A stretch of DNA of 64,000 nucleotides. It comes from Escherichia coli (GTDB lineage: Bacteria > Pseudomonadota > Gammaproteobacteria > Enterobacterales > Enterobacteriaceae). Position numbers and translations under genes: made by a program. Each line of letters opens with the position of its first letter. Positions within the stretch are counted from its first letter, which is position 1. The notes below the pieces were generated by a model. The model saw only the letters and a list, made by a program, of their open reading frames with translations, was not told where the DNA came from and ran no database searches. The stretch lies in NCBI RefSeq assembly GCF_044324875.1, contig NZ_CP172185.1; one strand, written 5' to 3'. Shown one piece after another: positions 46,424 through 53,748 of this stretch.

Positions 46424-47317
46424 ATGGCAACGAATTTACGTGGCGTAATGGCCGCACTCCTGACTCCTTTTGATCAACAACAAGCACTGGATAAAGCGAG
46501 TCTGCGTCGCCTGGTTCAGTTCAATATTAAGCAGGGCATCGACGGTTTATACGTGGGTGGTTCTACCGGCGAAGCCTTTGTACAAAGCCTTTCCGAGCGT
46601 GAACAGGTACTGGAAATCGTCGCCGAAGAGGCGAAAGGCAAGATTAAACTCATCGCCCACGTCGGTTGCGTCAGCACTGCTGAAAGCCAACAACTTGCGG
46701 CATCGGCTAAACGTTATGGCTTCGATGCCGTCTCCGCCGTCACGCCGTTCTACTATCCTTTCAGCTTTGAAGAACACTGCGATCACTATCGGGCAATTAT
46801 TGATTCGGCGGATGGTTTGCCGATGGTGGTGTACAACATTCCTGCCCTGAGCGGGGTAAAACTAACCCTGGATCAGATCAACACCCTGGTTACGCTGCCT
46901 GGTGTCGGCGTGCTGAAACAAACCTCTGGCGATCTCTATCAGATGGAGCAGATCCGTCGTGAACATCCGGATCTGGTGCTCTATAACGGTTACGACGAAA
47001 TTTTCGCCTCTGGTCTTCTGGCGGGCGCTGATGGTGGTATCGGTAGTACCTACAACATCATGGGCTGGCGTTATCAGGGTATTGTGAAGGCTCTGAAAGA
47101 AGGCGATATCCAGACCGCGCAGAAGCTGCAAACCGAATGTAATAAAGTCATTGATTTACTGATCAAAACGGGCGTATTCCGCGGCCTGAAAACGGTCCTG
47201 CATTATATGGATGTGGTGTCTGTGCCGCTGTGCCGCAAACCGTTTGGTCCGGTAGATGAAAAATATCTGCCAGAACTGAAGGCGCTGGCCCAGCAGTTGA
47301 TGCAAGAGCGCGGGTGA
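46424..47317 (+). CDS. nanA: N-acetylneuraminate lyase
   Basis: ORF track 46424..47317 (297 aa) [52 protein letters not shown]... Confidence 0.97.
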
Positions 47318-47322
47318 GTTGT

Positions 47323-47357
47323 TTCCCCTCGCTCGCCCCTACCGGGTGAGGGGAAAT
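47323..47357. repeat. G/C-rich imperfect palindrome downstream of nanA (same family as 28647-28690)
   Basis: tttcccctcgctcgcccctaccgggtgaggggaaa; shares cccctcgc...cccct...gggtgagggg with the tldD-aaeR element; possible terminator/attenuator between nanA and nanT. Confidence 0.5.
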
Positions 47358-47425
47358 AAACGCATCTGTACCCTACAATTTTCATACCAAAGCGTGTGGG
47401 CATCGCCCACCGCGGGAGACTCACA

Positions 47426-48916
47426 ATGAGTACTACAACCCAGAATATCCCGTGGTATCGCCATCTCAACCGCGCACAATGGCGGGCATTTTCCGCTGCC
47501 TGGTTGGGATATCTGCTTGACGGTTTTGATTTCGTTTTAATCGCCCTGGTACTCACCGAAGTACAAGGTGAATTCGGGCTGACGACGGTACAGGCAGCAA
47601 GCCTGATCTCCGCAGCCTTTATCTCTCGCTGGTTCGGTGGCCTGATGCTCGGCGCTATGGGTGACCGCTACGGGCGTCGGCTGGCAATGGTCACCAGTAT
47701 CGTTCTCTTCTCGGTCGGGACGCTGGCCTGCGGTTTTGCGCCAGGCTACATCACCATGTTTATCGCGCGTCTGGTCATCGGCATGGAGATGGCGGGTGAA
47801 TACGGTTCCAGCGCTACCTATGTCATTGAAAGCTGGCCAAAACATCTGCGTAACAAAGCCAGTGGTTTTCTGATTTCAGGCTTCTCTGTGGGGGCCGTGG
47901 TTGCCGCTCAGGTCTATAGCCTGGTGGTTCCGGTCTGGGGCTGGCGTGCGCTGTTCTTTATCGGCATTTTGCCAATCATCTTTGCTCTCTGGCTGCGTAA
48001 AAACATCCCGGAAGCGGAAGACTGGAAAGAGAAACATGCAGGCAAAGCACCGGTACGCACAATGGTGGACATTCTCTACCGTGGTGAACATCGCATCGCC
48101 AATATCGTGATGACGCTGGCGGCAGCTACTGCGCTGTGGTTCTGCTTCGCCGGTAACCTGCAAAATGCCGCAATCGTCGCTGTACTCGGGCTGTTATGCG
48201 CCGCAATCTTTATCAGCTTTATGGTACAGAGTACGGGCAAACGCTGGCCAACGGGCGTAATGCTGATGGTGGTCGTGTTGTTTGCTTTCCTCTATTCATG
48301 GCCGATTCAGGCACTGCTGCCAACGTATCTTAAAACTGAACTTGCTTATAACCCGCATACTGTCGCCAATGTGCTGTTCTTTAGTGGCTTTGGTGCGGCG
48401 GTGGGGTGCTGCGTCGGTGGCTTCCTCGGTGACTGGCTGGGAACCCGCAAAGCGTACGTTTGCAGTCTGCTGGCCTCACAGCTGCTGATTATTCCGGTAT
48501 TTGCGATTGGTGGCGCAAACGTCTGGGTGCTCGGTCTGTTACTGTTCTTCCAGCAAATGCTTGGTCAGGGCATCTCCGGGATCTTACCGAAACTGATTGG
48601 CGGTTATTTTGATACCGACCAGCGTGCAGCGGGCCTGGGCTTTACCTACAACGTTGGCGCATTGGGCGGCGCACTGGCCCCAATCCTCGGCGCGTTGATC
48701 GCTCAACGTCTGGATCTGGGGACGGCACTGGGCTCGCTCTCGTTCAGTTTGACGTTTGTGGTGATCCTGCTGATTGGTCTGGATATGCCTTCTCGCGTTC
48801 AGCGTTGGCTGCGCCCGGAAGCGTTGCGTACTCATGACGCTATCGACGGCAAACCATTTAGCGGTGCCGTGCCGTTTGGCAGCGCCAAAAACGATTTAGT
48901 CAAAACCAAAAGTTAA
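47426..48916 (+). CDS. nanT: Sialic acid:H+ symporter NanT (MFS)
   Basis: ORF track 47396..48916; start set at [39 protein letters not shown] (496 aa). Confidence 0.95.
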
Positions 48917-48963
48917 TCCTGTTGCCCGGTCTCTGTACCGGGCCTTTCGCTAAGGGAAGATGT

Positions 48964-49649
48964 ATGTCGTTACTTGCACAACTGGATCAAAAAATCGCTG
49001 CTAACGGTGGCCTGATTGTCTCCTGCCAGCCGGTCCCTGACAGCCCGCTCGATAAACCCGAAATCGTCGCCGCCATGGCATTAGCTGCAGAGCAGGCGGG
49101 TGCGGTCGCCATTCGCATTGAAGGTGTGGCAAATCTGCAAGCCACGCGTGCGGTGGTGAGCGTGCCGATTATCGGGATTGTAAAACGCGATCTGGAGGAT
49201 TCTCCGGTACGCATCACGGCCTATATTGAAGATGTTGATGCGCTGGCGCAGGTGGGCGCGGACATTATCGCGATTGACGGCACCGACCGACCGCGTCCGG
49301 TGCCTGTTGAAACGCTACTGGCACGTATCCACCATCACGGTTTACTGGCGATGACCGACTGCTCAACGCCGGAAGACGGTCTGGCATGCCAAAAGCTGGG
49401 AGCCGAAATTATTGGCACCACGCTTTCTGGCTATACCACACCTGAAACGCCAGAAGAGCCGGATCTGGCGCTGGTGAAAACGTTGAGTGACGCCGGATGT
49501 CGGGTGATTGCCGAAGGGCGTTACAACTCGCCTGCTCAGGCGGCAGATGCGATGCGCCACGGCGCGTGGGCGGTGACGGTCGGTTCTGCTATCACACGTC
49601 TTGAACACATTTGCCAGTGGTACAACACAGCGATGAAAAAGACGGTGCT

Positions 49650-49653
<4 letters not shown>
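48964..49653 (+). CDS. nanE: N-acetylmannosamine-6-phosphate 2-epimerase
   Basis: ORF track 48922..49653; start set at ATG 48964 ([30 protein letters not shown]..., 229 aa). Confidence 0.95.
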
Positions 49654-50986
<1,333 letters not shown>

Positions 50987-51004
50987 AACTTAGTTCGTTT
51001 TAAA

Positions 51005-51031
51005 GATTCTCCAGACAGTGTCTGGAGAATT
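51005..51031. repeat. Palindrome gattctccagac-agt-gtctggagaatt in yhcH/yhcG convergent gap
   Basis: Perfect 11-bp arms (attctccagac / gtctggagaat) around a 3-nt spacer; related to the two palindromes inside yhcG (51761-51834). Confidence 0.7.
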
Positions 51032-51045
51032 CGAAACCGCTGAAA

Positions 51046-52134
51046 TTAACGGCGTCTATAGCCTTCCTCTAGCACCGCCTGTGTTCGAACGAGTTCATCT
51101 GCGAGTCGTTTCTCATCAGGTAGTTGCATCTTATATTCGCTTGCCAGAACGGTGTTAGGCAAACCTGCCAGAGCATAATGCGCTTCGCCGGCTCCTTTCT
51201 CTGCACAGAGAATCAGACCGATGGGCGGATTTTCATCCGGTAGCGTCCAGTGATCTTTGGCGTAGTTGAGATACATATTCATCTGTCCGGCATCGCTATA
51301 GCTGAATTTGCCCACTTTTAGATCGACGATTAGCAGGCAGCATAAACGGCGGTGGAAAAACAGCAGATCGACACGAAACCAGTTATCATCAATGCGTAAC
51401 CTTCGCTGCCGACCAACAAAGGCAAAATCATCCCCAAGTTCCAGCATGAAATCCATCAGGTGGTTGATCAGCGCCTCCTCGAAATCAGATTCTGAATATT
51501 CATCTTTCAATTCCAGAAATTCGAGCACAAAGGGATCGCGTATCGCCTGCTGCGGAAGAATATGCGTCTCGGTAGGAGCGTGTTGTTGCAGCATGGCTGA
51601 TTTGTCATGTGACAGTAGTGTTCGCTCATAAAATTGGGTCGCAATTTGCCGCTCTAGCTGGCGAACAGACCAGCCACAGCGGAGCGTCTCTTTTTCATAA
51701 AAGCTACGAGCGTCAGCGTTTTTAACAGAAAGCAAACGGACGTAAGTGGACCAGGGCCGGGGGAAAGATTTGGCAGACAGCGTCTGCCAAATCTTTCCCG
51801 ATGGGAATTCTGCAGACGGTGTCTGCGGAATTTCAACATGTTGAAAAAAGAGGTAAAAAAGTCTCATTTGGCGCAAGTTTTTTGCAGAGAACCCACGCTT
51901 ATACCTTAGACATAAATCCTTTGATAGTCGCTTGATTAGCTGCGCACCATACGCAGCCCTGGCCTCGCCACCTTGTTCAAATTCGACAATTCGTCGGCCA
52001 ATTTCCCAGTATGTCGCGGTCATCAGCGCGTTAACGCTACGTACCGTTTCCGTCCGGGCGCTATCGACCAGGTGAATAATACCGTCGTGGATTTGCTGGT
52101 AGCCTGTTGAGGTTCTCTCTGAGAGCGATTCCAT
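51046..52134 (-). CDS. yhcG: DUF1016-family putative PD-(D/E)xK nuclease YhcG
   Basis: ORF track 51046..52134 (362 aa) MESLSERTSTGYQQIHDGIIHLVDSARTETVRSVNALMTATYWEIGRRIVEFEQ...; ATG confirmed at 52134; convergent with yhcH. Confidence 0.85.
   Translation of the reverse strand: MESLSERTSTGYQQIHDGIIHLVDSARTETVRSVNALMTATYWEIGRRIVEFEQGGEARAAYGAQLIKRLSKDLCLRYKRGFSAKNLRQMRLFYLFFQHVEIPQTPSAEFPSGKIWQTLSAKSFPRPWSTYVRLLSVKNADARSFYEKETLRCGWSVRQLERQIATQFYERTLLSHDKSAMLQQHAPTETHILPQQAIRDPFVLEFLELKDEYSESDFEEALINHLMDFMLELGDDFAFVGRQRRLRIDDNWFRVDLLFFHRRLCCLLIVDLKVGKFSYSDAGQMNMYLNYAKDHWTLPDENPPIGLILCAEKGAGEAHYALAGLPNTVLASEYKMQLPDEKRLADELVRTQAVLEEGYRRR
51761..51834. repeat. Two adjacent palindromes inside the yhcG coding sequence
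   Basis: P1 51761-51799: gggaaagatttggcagac-agc-gtctgccaaatctttccc (perfect 18-bp arms). P2 51803-51834: gggaattctgcagac-ggt-gtctgcggaatttc (14-bp arms, 2 mismatches). Both share the CAGAC-N3-GTCTG core with the intergenic copy at 51005-51031. Confidence 0.8.
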
Positions 52135-52317
52135 TATCTGTCCCTTTATATGGCGCTGCGTTGAATAATGGAATCAGCTATACGCCGGGCATCTACCGGT
52201 AACAATCCAGATGTGCGTATTACATTGGTTTTCTTCAGATTATGCGAGGCGCTTTCCAGTACGAAAGGAGAATTTCAGCGCCGACTCTTTTCTGAGGAGG
52301 CGGCGCTGGGACAGAGT

Positions 52318-53748
<1,431 letters not shown>

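Follow-up and report, generated by a model that had tools for sequence, protein, structure and literature searches.

Why a gene for a predicted nuclease should carry palindromes in frame with its own codons is the question raised by yhcG in the stretch of Escherichia coli DNA analysed here (contig NZ_CP172185.1 of assembly GCF_044324875.1; 64,000 nucleotides, hereafter the window). The gene is an intact open reading frame (ORF) of 362 aa on the minus strand (51046-52134 in the ORF listing of the window), lying between the nan operon and gltBD and outside any defence island. It belongs to DUF1016/YhcG, a large prokaryotic nuclease family that is found in chromosomes, restriction-modification (R-M) operons, integrative and conjugative elements (ICEs) and prophages, and that is listed as a defence candidate. 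Gene and family were already known; what appears to be new, judging from the searchable literature, is a palindrome that runs through the whole family. The original prediction for this locus, made from the letters of the window, had treated its palindromes as a local oddity, yet we find the element at the same gene position family-wide. Conserved over 13-27 bp and in synonymous positions, it offers a concrete candidate recognition site for the family.

The intragenic palindrome across the YhcG family

The palindromes of the window, and the segment of yhcG that holds two of them, are as follows.

51761-51799, no strand assigned: unit B, GGGAAAGATTTGGCAGAC-agc-GTCTGCCAAATCTTTCCC, encoding GKIWQTLSAKSFP; 18-nt arms, 100% complementary; in other strains, BL21-type replacements and an IS1 insertion terminate in this unit
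51803-51835, no strand assigned: unit A, GGGAATTCTGCAGAC-ggt-GTCTGCGGAATTTC, encoding EIPQTPSAEFP; imperfect (inverted-repeat search and folding)
51002-51045, no strand assigned: P1, ATTCTCCAGACA-g-TGTCTGGAGAAT with its flank, in the gap with nanQ; the palindrome itself is 51006-51030, 15 nt past the yhcG stop (repeat search)
51754-51846, minus strand: segment encoding aa 97-127, the low-confidence N-domain loop holding both units (predicted local distance difference test, pLDDT, 45-62 in both models)

As the original prediction had noted, palindromes occur both in frame within the gene and in the convergent gap beyond it: units A and B lie inside yhcG with their centres 39 nt apart, and P1 lies past its stop codon. 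P1 is 75% identical to unit A and flank over 40 nt and, if read through, encodes FQRFRILQTLSGES (the P0026 extension), and the palindrome core occurs nowhere else in the 64-kb window. Folded as single strands, the palindromes give z = -8.3 and -8.8 with 0/200 shuffles equal, and units A, B and P1 all fold far better than shuffles. The loop region of aa 97-127 varies in length across the family in the homologue alignment.

Homologues were compared in 80 loci from different GTDB species at 37-65% protein identity, covering Proteobacteria, Acidobacteria, Bacteroidota, Firmicutes, Cyanobacteria, Planctomycetes and several archaea, and in a combined set of 168 genes comprising the genomic loci and the best 80 of 121 confirmed IMG/VR homologues, some of the viral loci being near-duplicates. 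The pattern CAGACNNNGTCTG matched the yhcG homologue in most of the 80 loci, at the same gene position, and the family consensus AATTnnnCAGACA-N-TGTCTGnnnAATT stands at the equivalent position in ~90% of the 168 diverse homologues. Palindromes with a score of at least 7 are carried by 151 of the 168 genes, and the centre falls in the same codon phase for 178 of 203 palindromes. One in-phase palindrome is present in 116 genes, two in 21 and three in 5 (142 genes), and the spacing between tandem palindromes is always a multiple of three, most commonly 39 or 36 nt. Alternative cores (CACGCA, GAGACA, CAGTCA, GTATCA) occur in some clades within the same architecture, and units within one gene differ in their arms, each being self-complementary.

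The inner seven pairs in our covariation table are biased because of how hairpins were selected, and the unbiased evidence comes from the outer pairs, the codon counts of the encoded QTxS peptide and a stem-length test. Across the 80 GTDB loci, the codons of QTxS[GADVE] are exactly CAG-ACN-NNG-TCT-G in 51 of 60 motifs, against 1.8 expected from local codon usage; the serine is TCT in 58/60 (8.7 expected), and the third base of x is G in 57/60 (24.3 expected). These fixed synonymous positions span phyla of very different G+C (binomial P ~1e-68). The longest perfect stem at the palindrome position has a median of 9 nt and reaches at least 8 nt in 57/80 genes, compared with 1/80 and 1/80 in two control windows of the same genes and 3/80 after codon shuffling. 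Anchored on its centre, the consensus reads RAWWnnnCAGACA-N-TGTCTGnnnWWTY; arm positions 7, 8 and 9 from the centre are complementary in 97%, 93% and 75%, with four pair types each, against 30-34% in shuffled sequences, and the symmetry signal fades out at about position 13. Because codons, stems and phase are fixed and the peptide is a disordered loop, the amino acids look like a by-product of a nucleotide-level constraint, and on this comparative evidence the palindrome is selected at the nucleotide level. In the searchable literature (subscription papers not covered) and in Rfam we found no prior description of a family-wide intragenic palindrome.

Mismatched arm pairs are rare, at ~3% of pairs. 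An apparent antisense-wobble signal among them (A-C 36 vs G-T 11 in raw counts; 25 vs 11 after de-duplication, p 0.24) was rejected, and synonymous-site opportunity alone predicts 60% A-C mismatches. Wobble pairs are tolerated no more than other mismatches, which favours DNA over RNA; in all other respects the mismatch classes carry no information on strand or RNA.

The nan-glt junction and palindrome copies outside yhcG

yhcG is bounded in the window by the following features.

50522-50986, plus strand: yhcH/nanQ, last gene of the nan operon (ORF listing and annotation of matching E. coli records)
52135-52317, minus strand: gltD-yhcG spacer, with a hairpin after the gltD stop (52276-52308) and the conserved yhcG upstream region (inter-genus alignment)
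52318-53736, minus strand: gltD, upstream neighbour in the same orientation as yhcG (ORF listing; adjacency kept in Salmonella, C. koseri and Pseudocitrobacter)

The plus-strand genes nanA-nanT-nanE-nanK-yhcH(nanQ) converge on yhcG, which begins 183 bp downstream of gltD; gltB-gltD precedes it in the same orientation. Directly behind gltB-gltD is also where yhcG is found in Salmonella enterica, Citrobacter koseri and Pseudocitrobacter faecalis, and in C. koseri and P. faecalis the nan operon comes after it, as in the window. The 183-bp spacer aligns end to end with that of Pseudocitrobacter, post-gltD hairpin included, and for the part next to yhcG the alignment extends to C. koseri, Salmonella and K-12. 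Since the gltB-gltD-yhcG adjacency is common to Salmonella, Citrobacter and Pseudocitrobacter, the arrangement of the window is the ancestral one, and the genes that K-12 has between gltD and yhcG (gltF-yhcA-yhcD-yhcE::IS5-yhcF) are therefore an insertion. Consequently, the deletion junction with gltD described in the original prediction has to be abandoned.

That the locus varies between strains, as was also claimed, is borne out by 5426 complete E. coli genomes: 4464 contain yhcG DNA, which covers at least 80% of the gene length in 3347, the gene being absent in 18% and truncated in ~20% (~38% together). The window-type adjacency, queried as 2.5 kb of nanK-nanQ-yhcG-gltD with one match covering at least 80%, occurs in 2418 of the 5426. 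Unit number varies too, from three in K-12, 19KM1831 and most E. coli (375 aa) to two in the window (362 aa) and one in many alleles (349 aa); the third unit of K-12 and most E. coli, which the window lacks, sits 39 bp further on. Head-to-tail in-frame units of 39 bp whose copy number varies from 1 to 3 between strains constitute a variable-number tandem repeat. Tandem Repeats Finder reported no repeat in the window yhcG because the two units are too diverged, and the repeat is evident from the strain alignment. yhcG is among the LSPA-6 lineage markers of E. coli O157:H7 (PMC3514354), in which yhcG lengths differ by 78 bp (1128 vs 1050 bp); these figures fit a marker that would read palindromic unit number.

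Larger rearrangements end at palindromes as well. The B2-type allele lacks yhcG wholly: a single palindrome stands between the nanQ-side flank of P1 and the gltD-side flank of the fifth, gltD-proximal copy that K-12 carries, so that P1 is one endpoint of this yhcG-less allele, which by its sequence is a deletion between two palindromes. BL21-type alleles keep the N-terminal third of yhcG and have the remainder swapped for ~400-470 bp of foreign DNA, and in another state IS1 lies inside yhcG and the N-terminus is lost; replacement and insertion both end in a palindrome. The allele of E. coli strain 5283 (L175) is 95-100% identical to the window outside codons 81-140, whereas these codons, around the palindromes, show 58-71% identity and are Pseudocitrobacter-like, a mosaic that looks like gene conversion centred on the palindromes. 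Because the endpoints of deletion, replacement, IS1 insertion and mosaic fall there, the palindromes are the breakpoints of most variation at the E. coli locus, and they explain the strain-to-strain structure of its nan-glt junction.

Further details concern BL21 and K-12. At the BL21 locus (L003 2030-2500), the nuclease domain and P1 have been swapped in B strains for ~470 bp of foreign DNA that contains a 101-aa ORF, annotated as 'transposase' in RefSeq and matching no Pfam family, and an inverted repeat of its own, TGGCACAGAGC...GCTCTGTGCCA. K-12-type strains possess an extra palindrome, GAATTCGCCAGAC-tgt-GTCTGGCGAATC, 14 nt past the gltD stop (L002 17948-17975), at that end of the inserted gltF-yhcADEF fimbrial cluster which faces gltD and in place of the ancestral gltD hairpin; the fimbrial island may have entered at a palindrome.

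Beyond E. coli, loci totalling 1.76 Mb give 91 core matches, 88 inside yhcG-like genes and 3 extragenic. The whole of IMG/VR contains 31 sites with the 18-base pattern ATTnnnCAGACAnTGTCTGnnnAAT, yhcG-like genes accounting for 20, and a metagenome sample contains at least 128, where 96/128 of the matches listed are in yhcG-like genes. Copies outside such genes are mostly intergenic and stand-alone, and among the metagenome matches listed 13 of 32 stand-alone copies have symmetric arms (1.6% by chance). Their neighbours include AbiEii/AbiEi, RhuM, an AAA-ATPase with PDDEXK_9, a large serine recombinase, HTH (helix-turn-helix) proteins and also housekeeping genes, and some copies occupy operator-like positions. 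One example is viral contig L190 (9938-9990), where the gene for a large serine recombinase is immediately preceded by two copies in tandem, with a site 16 nt before its start. Other stand-alone copies in viral contigs are found at L176 5813-5837, L189 6506-6530, and L204 4740 and 6062; among the viral-contig copies, a RhuM gene has one ~90 nt upstream, an AbiEii toxin gene has one at its stop codon, and the region downstream of an AAA-ATPase/PDDEXK_9 gene has one on either side. Stand-alone copies may be footprints of yhcG turnover, like P1, or trans-acting sites.

What may read the palindrome, and what the nuclease may do

The coding sequence and its predicted parts are listed here.

51046-52134, minus strand: yhcG coding sequence (CDS), intact (ORF listing, Pfam, identity to E. 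coli YhcG, dN/dS)
51622-52080, minus strand: N-terminal DUF1016_N domain (aa 19-171), all-helical, ParB/KorB-like HTH by fold
51094-51552, minus strand: C-terminal PD-(D/E)XK nuclease domain YhcG_C (aa 195-347)
51271-51441, minus strand: catalytic core codons E232 (51439-51441), D256 (51367-51369), D271-L-K273 (51316-51324), Q284 (51283-51285) and Y288 (51271-51273) (alignment and sequence)

Identification of the gene as a DUF1016 gene with a PD-(D/E)xK-type nuclease was sound. Both Pfam domains score well above their cut-offs (DUF1016_N, E 4e-41, 140.7 bits against 32.8; the YhcG_C PDDEXK domain, E 3e-56, 190 bits against 32.5), and the protein falls in the YhcG/DUF1016 family (PF17761 + PF06250, COG4804), for which NCBIfam has no model. 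The catalytic D/E-x-K residues that the original prediction proposed to look for are present as a full predicted set (E232, D256, D271-x-K273, Q284/Y288): across 30 aligned homologues, the most distant at 35% identity, E232 and D256 never vary and D271, K273, Q284 and Y288 are at least 90% conserved. The E-D-(D/E)xK motif was assigned to the family by Kosinski et al. 2005 (PMC1189080). Sequence identity of 97% to K-12 YhcG and the position between nanQ and the glt region identify the window ORF, on comparative grounds, as the Escherichia orthologue of YhcG, a stand-alone two-domain predicted nuclease inherited vertically behind gltBD. Setting aside a 13-aa indel, identity to E. coli YhcG is 97-98%, the window protein differing from the namesake of its family solely by a loop 13 aa shorter (two units, not three), and the family from its published descriptions, as far as we found them, by the DNA palindrome. 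yhcG is under purifying selection, with dN/dS of 0.10-0.22 within Escherichia and 0.05-0.09 against Salmonella and Pseudocitrobacter.

By fold, the C-domain is a Cas4/RecB-like PD-(D/E)XK nuclease with Dna2, NucS and Hjc among its neighbours, and it shares with Cas4/RecB-family nucleases and archaeal Holliday-junction resolvases its catalytic residues and a QxxxY-like helix. The all-helical N-domain finds its best fold matches in the DNA-binding domains of ParB/KorB/SopB/VirB. Pfam detects in YhcG neither the ParB N-terminal CTP-binding domain nor any other ParB match; YhcG, lacking that domain, is therefore no member of the ParB family and at most an analogue. A match in the PDB to 'DciF' (E 0.85 with a single sequence) disappeared when the family profile was used and was therefore put down to chance.

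The reading that we favour, tentatively and as somewhat short of an even prospect, is that the palindrome is a putative DNA self-site read by YhcG, for autoregulation or loading, since the gene product is the only factor co-inherited with the site across phyla and its N-domain resembles ParB/KorB by fold. YhcG's own predicted HTH domain would, as a dimer, read the palindrome carried in its gene, and the site would keep a potentially toxic nuclease autoregulated, or offer it a loading point, wherever the gene lands, be it the chromosome, a type I R-M operon, an ICE or a prophage; the cellular role would be in DNA conflict and defence, or in the processing of replication and recombination intermediates. 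As a perfect palindrome, the site would also be a hotspot of slippage and recombination, a side effect that would account for the 1-3-unit polymorphism of E. coli, its mosaic alleles, and the palindromic endpoints of its deletions and replacements. If the protein does read it, this would be a rare regulatory or targeting site inside the CDS of a horizontally mobile gene.

Parallels for such an arrangement are partial. ParB/KorB-type domains bind short perfect palindromes, the KorB operator being a 6+1+6 palindrome, and parS of Bacillus subtilis is located inside spo0J. YhcG resembles the ParB-parS and KorB-OB pairs in its N-domain fold and in that its putative target is a short perfect palindrome with an odd central base inside a gene, but it lacks the ParB CTPase and C-terminal dimerisation domains, is fused to a nuclease, and has outer arms that covary. 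The controller (C) proteins of R-M systems are involved in autoregulation of a toxic nuclease via a palindromic C-box, and the number of in-frame repeats in type I HsdS changes protein spacing; unlike the yhcG palindrome, the C-box is located upstream of its gene, and a separate small protein binds it. Rickettsia palindromic elements are palindromic repeats inserted in frame into genes, and as in yhcG their palindromic DNA is translated as a tolerated surface or loop peptide; however, they are mobile insertions scattered over many unrelated genes within a single genus, whereas the yhcG element keeps an orthologous position in one family across phyla.

Several observations weigh against a self-site. 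Position 1 beside the centre lacks covariation (69% vs 60%), as expected of a hairpin triloop, and the variable positions 7-9 stay complementary, even where the units of one gene differ, which dimer binding does not explain by itself and which points to base pairing (hairpin or cruciform) or template-switch symmetrisation. Mutual information between half-site class and protein columns was dominated by palindrome-encoded residues and phylogeny; beyond phylogeny there was no clean covariation between protein columns and half-sites, and the putative recognition helix gave a hint only. Since ~25% of copies lie outside yhcG genes, the element is not strictly self-contained, and an operator within a coding region is in itself unusual. 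The behaviour of positions 1 and 7-9 is why we rank second, as a rather unlikely alternative, the view that the palindrome works as a folded nucleic acid (an mRNA or antisense hairpin, or a DNA hairpin or cruciform) that tunes translation, processing or stability, with no need for binding by YhcG. The very stable hairpins (z -8), the four pair types at positions 7-9, the triloop-like centre and the differing but self-complementary units of one gene all suit such an element, yet across phyla the sequence of the apical 12 nt is itself conserved, beyond what structure demands, G-U-type pairs are unenriched on either strand after coding correction, and stand-alone intergenic copies exist; there is no U-tract, and the best Rfam match reaches 21.6 bits against a gathering score of 100 (E 0.3). 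Third, and improbable, comes a role primarily as a recombination site, a cassette boundary for yhcG, its halves or its cargo, perhaps cut by YhcG as a cruciform or site-specific nuclease. The junction of P1 left flank and gltD-proximal right flank in the B2 allele, the ends of the BL21 replacement and IS1 insertion, the mosaic allele that diverges only around palindromes, the palindrome at the gltD end of the K-12 fimbrial insertion, the stand-alone copies adjoining AbiE, RhuM, AAA-ATPase+PDDEXK_9 and a serine recombinase, and a nuclease fold related to junction resolvases (fold search; Kosinski 2005) are all in keeping with it. Yet such endpoints are no proof of a dedicated site because any perfect palindrome is recombinogenic; moreover, of the 91 copies in yhcG loci outside E. 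coli only 3 are extragenic, site-specific recombination in mid-gene would split the gene, and enterobacterial yhcG stays in one place across genera. Slightly more improbable still is a stronger version, in which YhcG-family genes would be autonomous single-gene elements with their own cognate site, the HTH-nuclease recognising, and perhaps cutting, the palindrome or cruciform in its own gene and in stand-alone copies and so driving gene conversion or cassette exchange; if true, this would explain how yhcG and hitch-hikers such as RhuM and AbiE gain access to type I R-M operons and defence islands, as well as the persistence of a single palindrome at 'empty' sites. Finally, the palindromes might be a neutral by-product of a conserved QTxS peptide and quasi-palindrome correction during replication. 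Template switching perfects quasi-palindromes, and it could explain both the symmetric arms and the compensatory change in P1 (TCC..GGA in the window, TGC..GCA in K-12), but the loop to which the peptide belongs is disordered and of variable length, the same synonymous bases are fixed in phyla of very different G+C (the TCT and third-base G counts given above), and palindromes are normally deleted, whereas in ~90% of members one persists, in the same codon phase. Part of the arm symmetry may come from template-switch symmetrisation, which cannot account for retention and codon fixation, and neutrality as a whole seems very remote.

What the nuclease does is a partly separate question, and the self-site reading is compatible with more than one answer. 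The family comprises 23,855 clusters at E<=1e-3 in a search of 50%-identity clusters, and the window YhcG matches the PADLOC candidate system PDC-S02 over its full length (PDLC04807, E 3e-133), resembling it also in being a single-gene system; PDC-S02 differs in being a computational candidate, and the window copy is not in a defence island. Among the 140 immediate neighbours of the 80 genomic loci are N6_Mtase (10), ResIII (7), Methylase_S (6), Eco57I (5) and HsdM_N (4), as well as relaxases, integrases and RhuM, so that R-M adjacency is far above chance, and viral contigs share the bias towards type I R-M. Published surveys place DUF1016 in similar company: it is enriched 17-fold beside the genes targeted by programmed inversions (PMC9881135), mostly in type I R-M loci, appears among the R-M nucleases of Tn7 cargo (PMC8649781), and is carried on RAGEs and ICEs (PMC4316617). 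For E. coli, a high-throughput study also reported network links of yhcG to HsdMRS and McrBC (PMC2672614). The neighbours further include topoisomerase IV/gyrase domains (DNA_topoisoIV 3, Toprim 3, DNA_gyraseB 2), an observation to be set beside the parE interaction described below.

An anti-phage or anti-plasmid defence nuclease, here in a domesticated chromosomal copy, is a possible if doubtful identity for YhcG, and one compatible with any reading of the palindrome. It draws on the PDC-S02 match, the R-M neighbours in genomes and viral contigs, the published associations and the patchy presence in E. coli; against it stand the one PDC-S02 representative that has been challenged, which gave no protection against T4, T5 or T7 (PMC12881386), the position of the window copy between housekeeping operons in four genera without partner genes, and BL21 and B strains, which are already without the nuclease domain. 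The original prediction had cautiously suggested defence or mobile-element remnants, of which the defence part gains, at the level of the family, from its candidate system and R-M neighbours, whereas this copy is intact, syntenic in four genera and under purifying selection. It shows no decayed ORF and no transposase, integrase or terminal repeats bounding it, the ORF listing holds no integrase, insertion sequence (IS) or hsd gene near yhcG (for hsd, within 47-56 kb), and the copy is neither embedded in nor adjacent to hsdM/hsdS/hsdR, as a type I R-M accessory would be. The proposed survey of synteny thus has a divided outcome, with an enterobacterial copy fixed in four genera and diverse family loci often beside R-M genes. 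A housekeeping-type nuclease for replication or recombination intermediates (hairpins, stalled forks, junctions) we regard as a good deal less probable than defence. Deletion of yhcG is reported to be synthetic lethal with dnaB, dnaN and parE hypomorphs (Hu et al. 2009, PMC2672614), purifying selection and a conserved chromosomal position agree with such a role, topoisomerase IV/gyrase genes occur 3 times in the 140 neighbours, and Dna2, NucS and Hjc are fold neighbours. However, the genetic data come from a single high-throughput study, ~38% of complete E. coli genomes lack yhcG or carry it truncated, so that the gene is dispensable in nature, and the family acts as mobile cargo elsewhere.

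The yhcG leader and minor features of the locus

The claim that yhcG stands alone, without an operon partner, agrees with the ORF listing of the window, in which no co-oriented gene overlaps or abuts it. One further element lies at its start.

52127-52175, minus strand: 11-nt perfect inverted repeat between 5' leader and start codon, GATTCCATTAT / ATAATGGAATC (arms 52127-52137 and 52165-52175; inverted-repeat search)

This repeat is partly kept in K-12, 19KM1831 and Pseudocitrobacter, and its pairing could occlude translation initiation, a possible form of translational control. Upstream, a promoter-like pair, TTGTTA-17-TATAGC, can be made out in the spacer at 52205-52177, below the threshold of our scan. 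The K-12 yhcF-yhcG spacer (approximately 52135-52260 of the window) is mostly retained in the window, and in K-12 a stationary-phase transcript, G0-10703, runs antisense to the yhcG 5' UTR (PMC7967276).

Conventional roles in transcription were considered for the palindromes and rejected. As intrinsic terminators they are ruled out by their sequence, because there is no U-tract, and as promoters their sole overlap is with one weak promoter-like match on unit A. That match is sigma-70-like (TTGAAA-18-CAGAAT, 9/12, at 51807-51836 on the minus strand), lies in sense orientation in the flank and arm of unit A, and might serve a transcript of the nuclease domain alone, though it is probably due to chance.

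The nan operon of the window (46424-50525) has a best identity of 97.3% among 5409 complete E. coli genomes, which probably places its source in an Escherichia lineage slightly beyond typical sequenced E. coli, such as a cryptic clade. More generally, 46424-50525 and 50400-52900 reach top identities of 97.2-97.3% in ~5400 complete E. coli genomes, with many strains tied.

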